A DNA stretch of 57,742 nucleotides, filler included, from Dimargaris cristalligena (taxonomy: Eukaryota), in assembly GCA_003614675.1 (NCBI GenBank). It is 5 parts of 5 records of this genome, joined end to end, with 100 filler letters (N's around TTAATTAATTAA, not from the genome) between each part and the next. Parts side by side here need not be neighbours in the genome. Positions count along the whole stretch, not along the records: positions 34,763 to 46,204 come from ML003112.1; 4 more parts are not named here. The stretch is one strand, 5' to 3'. Shown one piece after another: positions 11,514 through 46,304 of the stretch. A program made the translations under genes and the position numbers. A model generated the notes under the pieces. That model saw only the letters and a program-made list of their open reading frames with translations, had not been told where the DNA came from and made no database searches. Position 1 is the stretch's first letter. Each line of letters opens with the position of its first letter.

Positions 11514-11613
11514 NNNNNNNNNNNNNNNNNNNNNNNNNNNNNNNNNNNNNNNNNNNNTTAATTAATTAANNNNNNNNNNNNNNNNNNNNNNNNNNNNNNN
11601 NNNNNNNNNNNNN
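11514..11613. other. Artificial contig-joining spacer
   Basis: N44-TTAATTAATTAA-N44; the linker has stops in all six frames. Confidence 0.97.
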
Positions 11614-23101: not shown

Positions 23102-23201
23102 NNNNNNNNNNNNNNNNNNNNNNNNNNNNNNNNNNNNNNNNNNNNTTAATTAATTAANNNNNNNNNNNNNNNNNNNNNNNNNNNNNNNNNNNNNNNNNNN
23201 N
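23102..23201. other. Artificial contig-joining spacer
   Basis: N44-TTAATTAATTAA-N44. Confidence 0.97.
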
Positions 23202-38032: not shown

Positions 38033-39975
38033 GGGCAGGGTTGGTCAAATAGAATAGAATAGAGGACCGGGGTAGGGGAGGGCAATTGGGTTGGAGGGAG
38101 GGTGATGGCTTGCAGCTATAGGTAGGCAAATGGTTCAAACAAAAGCCGATAGTCTAGGGGTTAAATAACCAGAAGGCGGGCTTTGGAGTCGTAAGTCAAC
38201 ACGGCGGTTAGGATGAGTGAATAATGAACTGCGGTGGTTGAGGTAGAAACGTGCGATTGGTAACCGCAATGGCTGGAAGCGCCACGCTGTATGGATATGA
38301 AAAAATCACGGGTGAGGGAAGCGGCGCGTGTAAAATAGAGTACTATGTGTTTATCTAATTAGGGTCGGAAGGGTGGTGTGGTCCCCCCCTCCTTAATCTA
38401 GAGACAAGGGTGGTCGGCGTAAGCCAAACCACCCCATCCGGCCACTCGGTGATTGGTCCACGTTTGTTTACCTTTGGAAGAGATTCCCATCTTAAGGGAC
38501 CATTCCCGCCAAACCCCCTTAGTTGGTTTAGGCGGCTTGATTTGCTTATGGCTGTGGCATACCAAATGCCCGAAATGTGACCGGACTTAAGGATAGGCGG
38601 ATAAGTCACTAATAAAGTAAGGCAATATAAGAGGCGGGTTGCTCTTTAAAGTATATCACCATTGCCTCTGGATATCTGAAAATGGGCAGGTTCCTTACTA
38701 GGGCAGCACCATAAAGCTAAGGGGAAAGGTAGGACCAGGGGATAATGATAAATCAGCCCCAGCAGCCGACAAAGTGGCCAAAAGAGAGGAATAAGCGATA
38801 AACATGGTATGGGGATTGTACAGTGCTTGGGAGGGGTCTGACTTTATTTGTAGCTTTTGAGGGGTTTTGAGCCATTTGTCCTTTAATCTATTCCCTGTGG
38901 ATGGCAAATTATGACCAAAAGGTCGCCTGCCTTAGATTCACTTTAAATAAAACTCTACTTCATCTGAGAGGGGTCTGGGTGGGTATAGGGCAGTCTAAGG
39001 AGAGGTCGGATATAACCGAATGTAATAATAGTATATATTATCTGGGTAGGGGAGAAGAGACATAATGCCAATTCTGCAGAAAACAGGGTTGTCCTGTAAC
39101 CCAACAACCTATGTCTGCTAGAATTGGATAGGTGCTCAATCTTACCGCGCGATTTCCGGTAATGACTCTATTGTTGCTGCACTATCGATTGGTTTCGTAG
39201 CCTGATTAGAACCCAACCTTCCAGAAGATTCATTCAGCGCCCAACGGAGTCGAGTTGATCAAATCTGGTATGCCCACGGAGAATATTCGAACATTTATCT
39301 GGCATGTCCTTGAGGAATTCCCAAGTATACATCTACCGTAGATTCGAACCGAAATACATAAAGCCCCGCCTGCTCCCATGTAACTTACATACTTCTTTAA
39401 CAGCCACCCTGATCGCTCATCTCCATCAGCAGAAGCCATTCTGTATCTGTAAGCGAAATATACATATCTATATATAATATCCTGACAAATGTGTAAGTAA
39501 TTGGGCAATTATATAACCGATTCGGCCAGCGTTTAAAAGCATGCCCTGCCCATTGGCTATTTAAAGCTACGGGCGAGTGGGGTGGTTTTTCCTCCCCCAA
39601 TCCATACATAGTACACCCATCCCATCAAGTACATCTTCCGCCAATCCACGTGACCTCAGTTGGTCCCCTCTCTTTTTCATTCTCGTATTTTTTGAGGATT
39701 TCAGAGCCTGGATGAAAAAAGAAAAAAAATGTACGGCACTAGTGTGGTGTACGAGGGCTTCAAGTTGACTGCAGCTTTGATTAATCAACGGGTAGGTTTT
39801 TTTACGTAGCTAAAGTACTGTAATTATCATTAAGGGCCGAGTTTAGTGAGTATCTTTTACGCCGGTTGCTTCTAATCTCCTTCATTGCCCAAGGAACGTT
39901 TCCTTGATAAATTTGCATTTCACCCCACTTTTTTCTTCGTCGTCCTTCACAGCCCCCTACCCGCCAATCGTCAAC

Positions 39976-42151
39976 ATGGGTCGCCTCCTGAAGAAAGGAA
40001 AGTCCGGTACGGCCAAGAAATACTGCAGCCGCTCCAAGGCCATTTCGAAGCTTCAATTGACGCTCAATGACTTCCGGTAAGTCTTTAGTTTCCTGGCCTA
40101 AATAGCCCGTATTTATCCTCCTCGGTCCCAGTTCGAACGCGAGCTGTTGGTCTCTTGGCTTCTGATATAATATGTGTAGGCCGACTGAGACACGTCCCGC
40201 TTGACTCGATGCGTAATTGGCCATTCTATTGATTTCCCATCACCCGCACTAAATCCCACTCCTTACTGATATTTTCCATATATATATATATATATATATA
40301 AATCTGACCCATCCCGCTTGCGTGTATTGTGCAAATAGTCGTCTGTGCATCTTAAAGGGCATCTACCCCCGCGAGCCGAACAATCGGCGCAAGGCCGGTG
40401 ACCGGTCCAACCGCCCCAGCATCTTCTACTACACCAAGGATATCCAGTTCTTGGCCCACGATCCTTTGATCAACAAATTCCGGGAGCACAAGACGTTCAC
40501 ACGCAAGTTGGCCCAGGTCACCAATCGCCGGGATAAAACCTCCGTCGAGTCCCTCAAGCGCCGGAAACCCGAATATAACCTCGACCACCTGGTCAAGGAA
40601 CGCTACCCGACGTTCATGGATGCCCTGCGTGATATCGACGATGCTCTGAGTCTCCTCTTCCTCATTGCCGCTCTTCCCAAAAAGGGGCTCTTCCTTAACG
40701 CCAGCCGCCTTGCTGGCATCCAGACCCTGTGCGCCGAGTTCCAGCAGTACATCATCCACACCCGCTCGCTGCGCAAAGTGTTCCTCTCCATCAAGGGTAT
40801 CTACTACCAGGCCGAGGTCCAGGGTGTCCCCATCACCTGGTTGGTCCCCTACGAGTTCCGGCAGAGCACCCCCAAGACCGTGGACCTTCGCGTCATGGCG
40901 ACCTTTGCCGAGTTTTACGAAACGTTGATCGGCTTCATCAACTTCCAACTCTACCGCGACGCTAACCTGGCCTATCCCCCCAAGATCAATGCCCAGAAGT
41001 GGACCAACGGCGAGTTCCTGGACGCTCTGACCCTGCAGTCCGCCCAGAACATCGACCAGCTGACCGCCCAACTCAACGCCGGTGCCAAACCCAAGGTACC
41101 CGCCCAACGGGTTCGCAACCTGGCCGCCAAGATGGCCGAGCTGGAGGCCACGGCCGCCCGGGGGAGTAGCAGCAATGTCGATGCCGAGGCGGAGGGTCAG
41201 GACGAGTCGGAGGCAGCCAACGCCGACACCGCCCAGGCGGATATCCGGGAGTTTGTCCAAGCGGCCAAGCAGCAGGCGGCCGAAGAGGGGGATGCCACCA
41301 CCCCCTCGGATGCCCTACTGGATCTGCAGGCCATGGAGCACCTTGCCGAGGCCCACTCGTCCCTCCAGAACCTCTTCCAAGGCGCCGTGTTCTATCTGTC
41401 CCGGGAAACCCCCCGGGGGGTCCTCTACTTCCTCATCCGGGCCTTCGGAGGCCAGGTAGGTTGGGATCCCCTCGCCGCTACCGGATCACCGTTCGCCGAG
41501 GCCGACTCCCGCATCACTTACCAGATTTGTGATCGCCCCATGCTGCAACACACCGTGGTGGGCCGCACTTACTTGCAGCCCCAGTGGGTGTTCGATAGCA
41601 TCAACTTCCAGAAGCGCATGCCCGTCCAGCTGTACGCCCCCGGCAAGGAACTGCCCCCTCATCTTTCGCCGTTTGTCGAATACCGCGAAGGCGACTACGT
41701 CCCCGAAGAAGCCAAGACTCTGGCCCAGGACCTCGAAGAAGATGCCGCCGAACGGGTGGCTGACGATGCCTTCAGCTCTGATGATGATGGCGACGATGAC
41801 GAGGAGTACAGTCAAGACGAAGCCGAGGCCGAAGAAGTGGAAGAGGTCAAGGTCAAGGTAGTAGTAGAGAAGAAGGAAGCCGAAGTCAAGGAGGTGGAGG
41901 TGGTGAAAAAGACCAAGAAGCAAGCGGCCCGGGAAACCATGGCCCATAAGAAGCGGGCCGCCCAGGAACAGGAAGAAGCCGATCAGCAGGCTATGCTGAA
42001 ATCGGTCATGTCCAAACGCCAGCGCTATCAGTTTGAATCGCGCGAGCGGAATAAGAAGCGGGAGAGGGAGGCTACGGAAACGCTGCAAACCCGTAAGGAA
42101 AAGATTGTTCGTCAACAAAAGAAACAGGGCAAGGCCAAGGGCCGGAACTAA
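39976..42151 (+). CDS. NOP7: Pescadillo/Nop7 ribosome biogenesis factor; 2 exons (39976-40076, 40339-42151), ~637 aa
   Basis: MGRLLKKGKSGTAKKY...LQLTLNDFR|RLCILKGIYPREP; LDHLVKERYPTF; BRCT domain (QPQWVFDSIN); PPHLSPFV; acidic then basic tail. Confidence 0.96.
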
Positions 42152-43717: not shown

Positions 43718-45452
43718 CTAATCTACAGATGCAGTCTTTTGTGAACTTTGCAGGTTAATTAGGATAACAGGGTCCACCACCGAAGATAGGATATGCATTT
43801 CCTCTTTATGAAATGCCCAAGGACCCAGGTCCGACACCCGGGCCTTCTCACTCGGTTCAAAATCCGATATCAAAACCATAACCCCCATTCTTTTGTCGTT
43901 GGTGAGCGTCAATTGCTTCGGCATATAAAAATACAATTCGTCAACTGCATCAATAATATGGGACCTGGATGATCCATTCTCAAATGTATCTGCCTCAGAT
44001 TCAACGGCCTCGAATTTGTTGGCTTCTCCATCACAAGCCCAGTAGGATTTCAGAAATACCGCCCCATCAAACAGTCCAAAGTCATTCATGTTCCCAGCCA
44101 AATTACACAGGAACTGATTATTAGATTCGATCTCATCTTCCGAGGCCTCTACTTTGTACACCCTCGTGAACACATTGAGAGCCGATTCCTGCTGGAACAT
44201 GGAGGCTAAGACAATGGCCAGTCGGTTCAAATTGTAAAAAGATCGGATGGCTTCTTCATCATTCATAGTGGGAGGGGGGCTCTTTGCGGTCATGAATGTT
44301 TCCATATCATCAAAGCGATTGGTGACAGCAAGTCGGGCTATAGCTATAGCCGACAACGTACGATCCAGATTGCTGGATAAAGCGGGAAGTATGGTATTAG
44401 ACGTCCCCGCGTCCAGATTTTTCATCATCAGGTGGCTGATCCGAGCCCGGGCGGGGTCTTGCATACCCTTTTCCACCGAGTGAAGGGTATCGCCATTCGT
44501 TAAAACCCCAATGGCTTCGGCAATTTTGTGGCCATCGGCGAGGTCTACGAGGGCTAGTAGGGGAATCTGGGTCGCCAAGGTATCCGTTTGAAGCAACTCA
44601 GGATCAACGAACCACCAAGCGTTAGGCTGGAAACTGGGCTCATTTTGGTTTTGCTCCAGATACCTTTGGTGGTTCTCAGAAACCGGTTTTTCACGACTAA
44701 TGGCCAATTGGGCTTTATCATACAAGGGCCGGGGAGGACACAGTGGATATCCGCCAACCTTGAAAAATAGCTCTCCGTATAGATGTTGATGCAGTAGTTG
44801 TTGCCATGTTGATGAGAGCCAGCTCTTCTCCTCGTCGACCAATGTGTCATTGGTAATGCGATCGAATTTGCTCAAAATAGTGACGTACTGCCACTAATGA
44901 CACCCAAAAGATATAAATATGTAGAATACTGGAAAATTAGATTATCAAGCCCATATCAGCTAGAAATTTAGACGACAGCTTAATTCAGGGTACTGTGGCG
45001 GGCCCAGGTCACCAGAAACCGATACCAATACATTTTAAATGGGTCGTAAGAAATGTCTCATCTGTGTATGTAATAGATAATTATTAAAAAGCAACTTGCG
45101 TAACATTCATAATAACGGGCTTTGGGCTTACCATTATATATTCTTTATTGAGATGGTTGTAGACAAAATTGTGTAAAAAATTCGATGTTTTCATCAGCTC
45201 AGAGATATATTCGTCAGTCAACATCGGTCTGATCATTTGTTTAAGAATTTCCGGGGGCATGGTGCTGAAACGGTCTTGTCTTCCTTCTCCACAATTTTCC
45301 ACCGGGTCGGTCTGGATGCGGGTGGTATCGTGAGTGCTACTGGAGTAATCACTGTTGATAGAATCCGAGGAGGGATTGGGGGCCGAGACAACTGATTGGA
45401 CAGCGAGACCAAGGACAACCAGGCCGACGATACTGATGCGTTGGGCTTTCAT
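43718..45452 (-). CDS. Secreted F-box-like protein A (candidate effector); 2 exons (45452-45132, 44893-43718), ~498 aa
   Basis: Signal peptide MKAQRISIVGLVVLGLAVQSVVS-AP; F-box-like FSTMPPEILKQMIRPML...ISELMKTSNFLHNFV; phase-0 intron GTAAGC...TAG joins EYIM|WQYVT in frame. Confidence 0.75.
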
Positions 45453-46204
45453 GGCAGGCGAAGAGTTGGCGGTAAGGGTGGGGAGAAGGTCGGAGAGGGA
45501 GAGAGAGAGAGAGAGAGAGAAAGGGGGTAAAATATAATAATAGGAAAAACAATAAGCGGGGAGTGAGCCTGGGGGGGGTTTAATAAGGTGCTGAGGGAGT
45601 CGAAGGTTGACTAGAGAGGCAATTTGAGTAGCAATATAGGGAGTAGAGCAAGAGAAGACAAACTGACTTTATTATATAAGCTGGGCATGTAATATGGGAC
45701 AACTGGTATTTCGTCTGGTGAACTGTAGGCCTAAGGCATCGCTAGTGAACGTACCTACAATTTTCCCTATACTCTCCTAATATAAGAATGAAGCCTCCGC
45801 CCTAGAGATACAATGGTAATGAACGGAAGGAAGAGAAGAAGGGAGGCGGTTGGTGGCTGATGCTAGTACGAAGTCTAACTAGATAGTTGGTGTATCGTTA
45901 CCCCATAGCCTTGAGACGGATTGGTGTGGTTTTCAAAACCATCGGCATAGCGAATAAGGTGTTTAGCTTGGTGGTACACCATTTCAAGGCAAAAGGGATG
46001 CCCCTTTTGTCGAATAACTGTAAAATTGTAGCGCCGAGACCCGGTGGACCGGTTAGGTCGGGGATTACGTCATGGGGGGAAAAAGCCGGGAAAATCAGCG
46101 AGAGGTTCGAACTACTATCAGGGATCTCGTTATTGGCAGATTGCAGTGGAGCCAACAGTGGGGTTGTAGAAGTGCTTTGCGGTGAGAAAGACATTGTGGT
46201 TTTT

Positions 46205-46304
46205 NNNNNNNNNNNNNNNNNNNNNNNNNNNNNNNNNNNNNNNNNNNNTTAATTAATTAANNNNNNNNNNNNNNNNNNNNNNNNNNNNNNNNNNNNNNNN
46301 NNNN
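46205..46304. other. Artificial contig-joining spacer
   Basis: N44-TTAATTAATTAA-N44. Confidence 0.97.

Follow-up and report, generated by a model that had tools for sequence, protein, structure and literature searches.

Why should a protein that appears to enter the secretory pathway carry an F-box-like motif, when the partners of F-boxes are cytosolic or nuclear? This question is raised by a gene of Dimargaris cristalligena within a window (the whole stretch of DNA that was analysed) of 57,742 nucleotides. The effectors with which early-diverging haustorial mycoparasites act on fungal hosts are, to our knowledge, almost entirely unknown. D. cristalligena has been described as a biotrophic mycoparasite (PMC6784888, PMC9866270) and is reported to grow weakly in axenic culture when the medium is supplemented (PMC6784888). 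A sequence-only reading of the window had proposed that the gene encodes a translocated effector. The gene belongs to a lineage-specific family, and the computational analysis given here makes it plausible that this is a family of candidate effectors and a variant of F-box mimicry.

Gene model and paralog family

The gene lies on the minus strand and consists of two exons (45452..45132 and 44893..43718) that together encode a protein of 498 aa, P0001. Exon 1 (45132..45452) has 107 codons and ends ATG|GTAAGC, and in a tblastn search residues 1-107 align to it with 100% identity. The intron (44894..45131; minus strand) is 238 nt long, has GT..AG borders in the sequence and is in phase 0. Exon 2 (43718..44893; minus strand) has 391 codons and a TAG stop codon and corresponds to residues 108-498, as shown by the open reading frame and by tblastn. 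Over both exons the product has 100% identity to a D. cristalligena database entry of 498 aa, annotated as a hypothetical protein, and the tblastn blocks abut at residues 107/108, matching the position of the intron. The predicted start codon is the ATG at 45452-45450 (minus strand), the earliest in-frame ATG within the stop-to-stop frame. The coordinates and anatomy given in the sequence-only reading are therefore borne out. A single open frame in exon 1 spans the signal-peptide-like segment, the polar linker and the F-box-like motif. Because the signal-peptide-like segment and the motif are in the same exon, their linkage is independent of splicing.

The genes on either side are housekeeping genes (condensin subunit 2 and pescadillo) and the region is not rich in effectors, which counts against the effector reading. 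A second F-box-like gene and Skp1 motifs were sought across the window and only the P0001 gene was found.

An hmmsearch of 1,835,955,588 protein representatives with a two-row profile identified 32 relatives at E<=0.001, and for 22 of these the match was at E<=1e-10. All 32 are named as D. cristalligena and they collapse to about 31 paralogs. Within the libraries searched, this is a family of about 30 paralogs that is confined to D. cristalligena. Word-index searches with the motif profile (longer proteins, E<=10) and with the 31-row profile gave 10 and three proteins, respectively, all of which belong to the family, and are uninformative on distant relatives. Eight of the 31 paralogs, P0001 among them, carry the UniRef label "F-box domain-containing". 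The alignment used here has 31 rows and leaves out P0003, P0048, P0051 and P0059; P0003 is the version of P0002 from a second assembly and has an internal gap. Where the models from the two assemblies differed, the longer one was used. Nineteen motif segments were extracted and 18 were aligned, with P0040 omitted.

The gene model was read from a genome that is described as a single-cell co-assembly (PMC6784888). It could be that translation, or a second isoform, starts from Met65 at the motif (MPPEIL...) to give an ordinary cytosolic F-box-like protein, or that the locus is silent or its two exons are not spliced together. Met65 sits at the 'L' of LP, the paralog P0015/P0044 begins MPSEII... 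in the models of both assemblies, and nine of the 31 models have no hydrophobic N-terminus (three of these nine are partial and lack a start Met). However, P0001 and its sister paralog P0002 share 59% protein identity in residues 1-64, across the whole of exon 1, and a hydrophobic N-terminus is present in 22 of the 31 divergent paralogs, which would be unexpected if it were untranslated. The paralog alignment is unbroken across the exon junction of P0001, a confident helix crosses this junction in the AlphaFold2 model (residues 102-115; block means 88 and 92), and the motif and the C-terminal domain co-occur within single proteins across family members. A fault of this kind in the gene model is improbable.

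The F-box-like motif and the C-terminal domain

There is an F-box-like motif at residues 62-100 (45153..45269; minus strand) that reads M-P-P-E-I-L..M-I ... L..T-S and is modelled as three short helices. AlphaFold2 and DSSP place these at residues 67-77, 80-89 and 91-100, with a block mean pLDDT of 82-88 over residues 61-100. Four positions of the motif are conserved in the family: Pro66 (24/26 alignment rows), Glu68 (19/26), Leu86 (20/23) and Ser90 (17/23). We take these to be positions that are also conserved in F-boxes. The F-box consensus has the Leu of 'LP' and usually a Trp in the third helix, whereas P0001 has Met in place of this Leu and no Trp in its third helix.

The likeness to F-boxes is weak for P0001 alone, where it is not significant, and better for the family, where it is significant. 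The peptide encoded by exon 1 of P0001 matched none of the Pfam families at E<=10. The sequence-only reading had put forward PF00646 and PF12937 as a check on P0001; neither these nor any other Pfam F-box model matched the whole protein at E<=10, and the gathering score was not reached. When the 18 motif segments of the paralogs were compared with Pfam, PF00646 was found in six members (best E 1.6e-5), PF12937 in five and PF15966 in two. F-box models were the only recurrent matches and made up 13 of the 16 family-member matches; the remainder were three unrelated families with one member each, all at E>=0.077. Paralog P0024 exceeds the Pfam gathering cut-off (22.0 bits against 20.5), and P0002 falls below the F-box-like cut-off (16.6 bits against 24.3). 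The F-box cut-off is thus reached by one member of the family but not by P0001. With the full-length proteins, the F-box models were matched at E<=0.1 by only 2, 1 and 1 of the 31 members.

The 18-row motif profile had 13 weak matches at E<=10 among 177,635 PDB sequences, none of them to an F-box protein, and the segment of P0024, the best-scoring paralog, had no match among the PDB sequences. A Foldseek search of the PDB with the whole P0001 model had no F-box protein among the 46 matches listed. In the Atlas, the best feature match for residues 55-112 (0.92) is an F-box cluster, which is a lead only. Eight of the ten Atlas structure rows for these residues are F-box-bearing clusters with a TM by query of 0.63-0.71, all under the bar set by the service and resting on a low-confidence whole-protein model (pLDDT 0.37). 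The pattern that had been noted at residues 62-97 therefore stands in part: the exact FSTMPPEIL... stretch is present and F-box matches recur across the family, but P0001 itself is matched by none of the Pfam F-box models and the motif profile has no solved F-box protein among its matches. On balance, it is rather likely that the family has a true F-box fold.

The domain encoded by exon 2 (residues 108-498) is all-alpha with a small beta element in the AlphaFold2 model. This model was made from the 31-row alignment (mean pLDDT 80.3; pTM 0.79), which was used instead of a two-row alignment that gave a pLDDT of 34 and was unusable. The domain, of about 390 aa, had been called unrecognised from the sequence and our searches concur. 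There is no Pfam family above threshold in exon 2, no solved fold in the PDB resembles the P0001 model at E<=0.001 by Foldseek (best E 0.15; TM<=0.20), and the C-terminal domain has no feature match in the Atlas, where its structure rows have TM<=0.40 from a poor underlying model. Pfam gave no LRR families in P0001 or in the 31 paralogs, and the all-alpha model has no solenoid match. A match to the DUF2205 coiled coil was rejected (E 0.0025; 18.3 bits against a cut-off of 26.7; a single helix only). The Foldseek rows for PCI, armadillo and TPR-like helical repeats were insignificant (best E 0.15) and those for the PCI proteins of the CSN and proteasome were not taken to be meaningful.

Within this domain Cys370 (44105..44107; minus strand) and Cys394 (44033..44035; minus strand) are the first and second residues of a C-x23-C pair. 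Cys370 is a Cys in 22 of the 31 rows; the two cysteines occur together in 21 rows, are both absent from eight and occur singly in two. Joint retention or loss of this sort would fit a disulfide. On the family tree the pair was lost jointly about three times, too few events for a significance test.

The N-terminal segment and the compartment of the protein

Residues 1-23 (45384..45452; minus strand) form a signal-peptide-like segment that consists of MKAQR, a 13-residue hydrophobic run ISIVGLVVLGLAV and QSVVS, after which comes Ala-Pro. We scanned it with a rule-based heuristic of our own that looks for Sec-type features (a positive n-region, an h-region of about 7-15 residues, and small uncharged residues at -3/-1). 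By these rules P0001 has an n-region MKAQR (+2), a 13-residue h-region and small residues at -3/-1, with candidate cleavage sites at VVS|APN and GLA|VQS. The Kyte-Doolittle hydrophobicity of the N-terminus reaches 3.06 in an 11-residue window, and there is no other hydrophobic segment in P0001 (maximum of 1.13 in a 19-residue window).

This N-terminus is conserved in the family. In the 22 models that have it, the hydrophobic run is 8-15 residues long and begins within residues 1-13; the length fits a signal peptide and not a transmembrane span. The n-region is net positive in 19 of these 22. The alignment shows that across the paralogs the run is followed by small residues and then by a conserved (A/S/T)-Pro, with Pro25 kept in 22 of the 24 occupied rows. 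The signal peptide that had been proposed for exon 1 is thus supported by the rule-based scan of P0001 and by the recurrence of the layout in 22 of the 31 paralogs. The polar linker of about 38 aa is also as described before: residues 24-61 (45270..45383; minus strand) are rich in Ser, Thr, Asp and Asn. The length of the linker varies among the paralogs, as seen from gaps in the alignment, of which it is the least conserved part (0.32). AlphaFold2 confidence is low across residues 1-60 (10-residue block mean pLDDT <=54). Members of the family are predicted to be secreted, and this is probably the case.

An uncleaved N-terminal segment would have a different outcome. It could anchor the protein in the ER or the mitochondrial outer membrane with the F-box and the helical domain in the cytosol of the parasite, where the protein would be an endogenous SCF adaptor. 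The F-box likeness of the family would suit such an adaptor, and membrane-associated F-box proteins exist in yeast. However, hydrophobic runs of 8-15 residues are short for a membrane span, and the positive charges are N-terminal of the run in 19 of 22 models. In P0001 the run is followed by 15 residues with one negative charge and no positive one, and by the positive-inside rule this charge layout suggests that the bulk of the protein would be lumenal. Additionally, the small residues at -3/-1 before the conserved Pro resemble a signal peptidase site and the Cys pair is better suited to a location outside the cytosol. An anchored adaptor of this kind is hardly likely.

If the proteins are secreted, it does not follow that the motif is a working F-box. 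They could form a secreted, cell-wall or lumenal family that never meets Skp1 and acts extracellularly or at the interface; it might, for instance, bind a component of the host surface or wall. The F-box-like helices would then only cap the helical domain at its N-terminal side, and would be either a relic or an LPxE-helix motif that arose by convergence. The conservation of the signal-peptide-like N-terminus is consistent with this, as is the co-varying Cys pair, which suits an oxidising compartment. AlphaFold2 puts the motif helices confidently in one continuous helical body, whereas an F-box on its own usually needs Skp1 to become ordered, and the failure of the P0001 motif in Pfam, the motif profile with no solved F-box match and the established location of F-box partners in the cytosol or nucleus point in the same direction. 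In contrast, the recurrent Pfam matches are to F-box models only and P0024 is above a curated cut-off. A mere structural cap would also have no need for Pro66, Glu68, Leu86 and Ser90, which are kept as in F-boxes. We regard a family of secreted proteins with such a cap as somewhat unlikely.

A proposed route to host Skp1 and its precedents

For the reading that we prefer, mimicry of a host F-box protein, we infer a chain of cleavage, secretion, disulfide formation, host uptake, Skp1 binding and ubiquitin-ligase hijack. The N-terminal signal peptide, with a predicted cut near Ser23|Ala24, would route the protein into the secretory pathway. A polar linker that is probably disordered would be followed by the divergent three-helix F-box-like module, and the protein would end in the all-alpha domain of about 390 residues and putatively new fold, probably held together by a disulfide between Cys370 and Cys394. 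It would be released at the host-fungus interface and then taken up by the host. The F-box-like module may dock on the conserved host Skp1, and the variable helical domain may in this way bring proteins of the host to the SCF ubiquitin ligase. We put the probability of the whole chain, from secretion through docking on host Skp1 to hijack of the SCF ligase, at about 0.35-0.4.

The combination of a secretion signal, a weak F-box-like motif and a helical domain makes these proteins candidates for delivery into the host fungus. That some 30 secreted SCF-adaptor mimics, each with a signal peptide, a divergent F-box and a helical substrate-binding domain of a new kind, are delivered into the hyphae of Mucorales hosts, where they steer host proteins to the host ubiquitin ligase, is a tentative and rather doubtful proposal. 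If it is true, no such system would have been described before from any fungus or from the parasitism of one fungus on another. F-box mimicry is established in bacteria and viruses and reported in a gall midge, but not in fungi. Binding of host Skp1 would mean that F-box mimicry had been invented independently using a eukaryotic secretion signal, and that a new fold for protein binding had been found. The system would also lend itself to experiment, since the parasite can be grown together with its host and Skp1 of the host is highly conserved. Should Skp1 not be bound, there is still an F-box-like module in the secretory pathway, and this needs to be explained.

The sequence-only reading knew of no characterised fungal example, and this agrees with the literature searched, in which a candidate from Rhizophagus clarus appears as a prediction only (PMC4746824). 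The words F-box, secreted and effector are absent from the main text of the D. cristalligena genome paper, and the word F-box does not occur in two comparative papers that deal with Kickxellomycotina and with zygomycete secretomes. Secretome or orthogroup tables in the supplements of the papers might already include the family. The R. clarus protein, NLS_30765, is described as a predicted secreted effector candidate of 542 aa that has an F-box-like match (PF12937, 2.8e-07) and is otherwise without homology (PMC4746824). It is like P0001 in being fungal, of similar size, predicted to be secreted and F-box-like, and both are known from sequence alone. It differs in being the single candidate of a plant mutualist and in having a Pfam match much stronger than any in the Dimargaris family. 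NLS_30765 is absent from the relatives of the family found by hmmsearch in the 1,835,955,588 representatives.

Canonical F-box proteins (PF00646/PF12937) share with P0001 the LPxE(I/L)..I start, a second helix with a conserved Leu, (V/T)-S at the opening of the third helix and three short helices, which in P0001 are modelled. In contrast, they have no signal peptide, and P0001 is under every Pfam F-box threshold. The C-terminal domain of P0001 is also unlike their WD40, LRR or Kelch domains.

Bacterial F-box effectors have been described as recruiting the host SCF ligase while a separate domain picks the substrates (PMC4312480, PMC4617103, PMC2790608, PMC12602876). The F-box mimicry with a separate substrate domain that we propose for the Dimargaris family is like that of Legionella AnkB/LegU1, Ralstonia GALA/RipG and Agrobacterium VirF. 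The bacterial effectors, however, carry ankyrin or LRR domains and are injected through type III or type IV secretion systems, whereas P0001, with its predicted eukaryotic ER-type signal peptide, would depend on an uptake route of its own. No sequence relation between the Dimargaris family and the bacterial F-box effectors was detected by hmmsearch or with the PDB motif profile.

Finally, signal-peptide-encoding effector genes have been described in the Hessian fly (PMC7330099), and for the SSGP-71 proteins of this insect, which combine an F-box with LRRs, an interaction with host Skp proteins has been reported (PMC4617103). In the Dimargaris family there is no LRR by Pfam and an unrecognised all-alpha domain is found instead, both parasite and host are fungi, and Skp binding is putative. 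Like SSGP-71 of Mayetiola destructor, it is a large, diversified and lineage-specific family of a eukaryotic parasite. The SSGP-71 genes are said to be about ten times as numerous as those of the Dimargaris family.

Gene model and genomic context of P0001

The gene for P0001 lies on the minus strand and its start codon, at 45452, is the first in-frame ATG of the stop-to-stop frame. Exon 1 (45452..45132, 107 codons) ends ATG|GTAAGC at 45132/45131 and is followed by a GT..AG intron of 238 nt (45131..44894) and by exon 2 (44893..43718, 391 codons), with a TAG at 43720-43718. A word-index search with exon 2 recovered a deposited 498-aa protein with 100% identity. The gene is therefore already annotated, as 'hypothetical protein BJ085DRAFT_34883 [Dimargaris cristalligena]' at NCBI and as 'F-box domain-containing' in UniRef. 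In a tblastn comparison with the window the deposited protein gives two abutting blocks (residues 1-107 and 108-498), each at 100% identity, and so the predicted splice is that of the deposited model. This bears out the exon anatomy proposed in the sequence-only reading. Additionally, in an AlphaFold2 model a helix at residues 102-115 crosses the exon junction (block mean pLDDT 88 and 92); this predicted helix and the continuous paralog alignment support the joining of exon 1 to exon 2. Some 50 bases upstream of the ATG, at ~45499-45520, lies a dinucleotide repeat, (CT)n/(GA)n, which reads as CT on the coding strand.

The D. cristalligena genome is described, in an excerpt of PMC6784888, as a co-assembly of single-cell amplified genomes from a biotrophic mycoparasite. 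The window consists of five contigs of about 11.4-11.5 kb each, joined by spacers at 11514-11613, 23102-23201, 34663-34762 and 46205-46304, each made up of 44 N, TTAATTAATTAA and 44 N. It is not one contiguous locus and the gene context of P0001 is therefore limited to its own contig (34763..46204, 11,442 bp). The neighbours on this contig are housekeeping genes: condensin subunit 2 at 35252-38044 (minus strand; two frames with a short gap between them, Pfam Cnd2 E 2.7e-69 and 6.7e-89) and a pescadillo homologue at 40253-42151 (plus strand; Pfam Pescadillo_N E 5.5e-97).

The paralog family

A HMMER search of 1,835,955,588 representative proteins, using a profile of P0001 and its paralog P0002, gave 32 matches at E<=0.001, of which 22 reached E<=1e-10 and 4 reached E<=1e-30. 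Every one of the 32 belongs to D. cristalligena (named from exact look-ups for 30 matches and from the deposited names of P0001 and P0002) and they come from two assemblies, with the locus-tag prefixes BJ085DRAFT and H4R33. Within the libraries searched, the family is restricted to this species. Versions were paired between the two assemblies and the longer model of each was kept, which gives 31 paralogs (alignment A2); P0003, P0048, P0051 and P0059 were excluded as duplicates or fragments. P0002 (520 aa) is the sole close paralog of P0001, with 59% identity in the part encoded by exon 1 and 40% in that of exon 2, and the two are sisters in a quick maximum-likelihood tree (SH-aLRT 100), where their end branches measure 0.56 (P0001) and 0.62 (P0002) changes per site. 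End branches are long across the family (median 0.95), suggesting that it is old and divergent.

The majority of paralog clusters at 90% identity contain versions from both assemblies. The P0001 cluster was seen on one contig only, without an H4R33 name among those listed, which could reflect presence/absence variation or an annotation gap. The gene model of one member, P0049 (718 aa), continues at its C-terminus into part of a cytochrome P450 (Pfam p450 E 1.8e-07, in this member alone; UniRef name 'Cytochrome P450') and is probably two adjacent genes merged in annotation.

N-terminus and F-box-like module

P0001 begins with MKAQR, followed by a 13-residue hydrophobic run (ISIVGLVVLGLAV) and QSVVS-AP. 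In a rule-based scan P0001 has sites that suit the -3/-1 rule, VVS|APN and GLA|VQS, and 22 of the 31 models have a hydrophobic run of 8-15 residues beginning within residues 1-13; P0045 has a 23rd, which begins at residue 25 and is outside this count. The n-region is net positive in 19 of the 22 run-bearing models. The N-termini of the family can be aligned with each other (pattern M..R.N.LGL..L.L) and the Pro following the putative cut is kept in 22/24 occupied rows. Nine models are without the N-terminal segment, three of them partial (no start Met) and the rest shorter alternative models. No further membrane-span-grade segment was found in P0001 (top 19-residue window, 1.13).

By heuristic judgement, the length of the run, the distribution of charge and the small residues ahead of Pro speak for a predicted signal peptide that is cleaved and against an anchor, in agreement with the sequence-only reading. 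An uncleaved anchor would leave the protein in the parasite's cytosol as an endogenous SCF adaptor, but the same run length and charge distribution, and the -3/-1 pattern, disfavour this and we consider it improbable. The N-terminus might be a gene-model problem, with initiation for example at Met65, right at the motif. However, residues 1-64 are conserved at the protein level and the hydrophobic N-terminus recurs among divergent paralogs, and there is little likelihood of such an error.

The F-box proposed for exon 1 has no Pfam support in P0001 itself and better support in its family. At E<=10 the exon-1 peptide matched nothing in Pfam, and whole P0001 had no F-box match, PF00646 and PF12937 included. 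Full-length scans at E<=0.1 matched PF12937 in 2/31 members, PF00646 in 1/31 and PF15966 in 1/31. Of 19 F-box-like motif segments extracted from the paralogs, 18 were aligned (P0040 was omitted), and scanned alone these matched PF00646 in six cases (best E 1.6e-5), PF12937 in five (best 2.2e-4) and PF15966 in two, with only three single matches to other families (E 0.077-0.28). With 22.0 bits on PF00646, the paralog P0024 exceeds the gathering score of 20.5; on PF12937, P0002 (16.6 bits), P0039 (12.5) and P0041 (12.0) are below the cut-off of 24.3. Conserved residues across the paralogs are Pro66 (24/26), Glu68 (19/26), Leu86 (20/23) and Ser90 (17/23), which we take to be the most conserved positions of the F-box consensus. 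The third-helix Trp is absent, and in P0001 Met replaces the Leu of 'LP'.

AlphaFold2, run on the 31-row alignment, places helices at 67-77, 80-89 and 91-100 (block mean pLDDT 82-88). For residues 55-112 the first ESM Atlas feature match is an F-box cluster (0.92; 138/256 features shared) and 8/10 structure rows are F-box-bearing clusters (TM by query 0.63-0.71), all of them under the service's bar and resting on the Atlas's own poor model of the protein. Searched against the PDB at E<=10, a profile of the 18 segments gave 13 weak matches, of which none was to an F-box protein; the P0024 segment had no PDB match, and a word-index search with the motif profile found family members only. On balance, we think it probable that the module derives from an F-box and has diverged since.

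C-terminal domain and proposed mechanism

The AlphaFold2 model (mean pLDDT 80.3, pTM 0.79) is of the all-alpha type, apart from a small beta element around residues 435-448. Foldseek gave no match at E<=0.001 among 350,542 PDB chains (best E 0.15, TM<=0.20, all generic helical repeats), the ESM Atlas gave no feature match for the C-terminal domain (TM<=0.40) and Pfam nothing above threshold. We treat this modelled fold as unrecognised among the PDB, ESM Atlas and Pfam, as the sequence-only reading had said of exon 2. Cys370 and Cys394 flank a helix-turn-helix, and both are present in 21/31 rows, both absent in 8/31 and only one present in 2/31. The tree implies only about three joint losses, a number insufficient for a sign test. 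A Cys370-Cys394 disulfide and ER passage would fit the paired residues.

The predicted signal peptide would export the protein from the parasite, and in a haustorial biotroph it could then reach the host cytoplasm, where the F-box-like module might dock on the conserved Skp1 and the variable domain select substrates. We give this whole chain, in which the sequence anatomy is observed and each functional step is conjectural, a probability of about 0.4. Somewhat less likely is a secreted or lumenal family in which the F-box-like helices do no more than cap the structure. The observation made from sequence is confirmed and its interpretation as an effector partly supported.

The system closest to this proposed way of working is the Hessian fly SSGP-71, a large diversified family with an F-box plus LRRs, for which an excerpt of PMC4617103 reports interaction with host Skp proteins. 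The bacterial F-box effectors VirF, GALA/RipG and AnkB are also similar, as outlined in excerpts of PMC4312480 and PMC4617103. On sequence criteria the P0001 family belongs to none of these: Pfam scans of P0001 and 31 paralogs found no LRR or ankyrin repeats, and HMMER and PDB profile searches detected no relation to SSGP-71 or the bacterial effectors. Among the papers listed in literature searches on secreted F-box effectors and Dimargaris, none was identifiable as describing the family. 'F-box' is absent from the main texts of PMC6784888, PMC9866270, PMC9391592 and PMC13188720, whose supplementary tables might list it. We did not find in print a species-restricted family of ~30 members with a predicted conserved signal peptide, a putative divergent F-box and an unrecognised helical domain in a mycoparasite. 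As the sequence-only reading had supposed, no characterised fungal example was found; the one fungal case found is a predicted, uncharacterised Rhizophagus clarus effector candidate with an F-box-like domain (excerpt of PMC4746824).

Finally, while P0001 and P0002 are without it, seven of the 31 paralogs (P0035, P0042, P0043, P0046, P0052, P0041 and P0019) carry an (I/V)-P-x-x-F motif at the extreme C-terminus, for example ...IPSDF, ...VPPDF and ...VPEEF.
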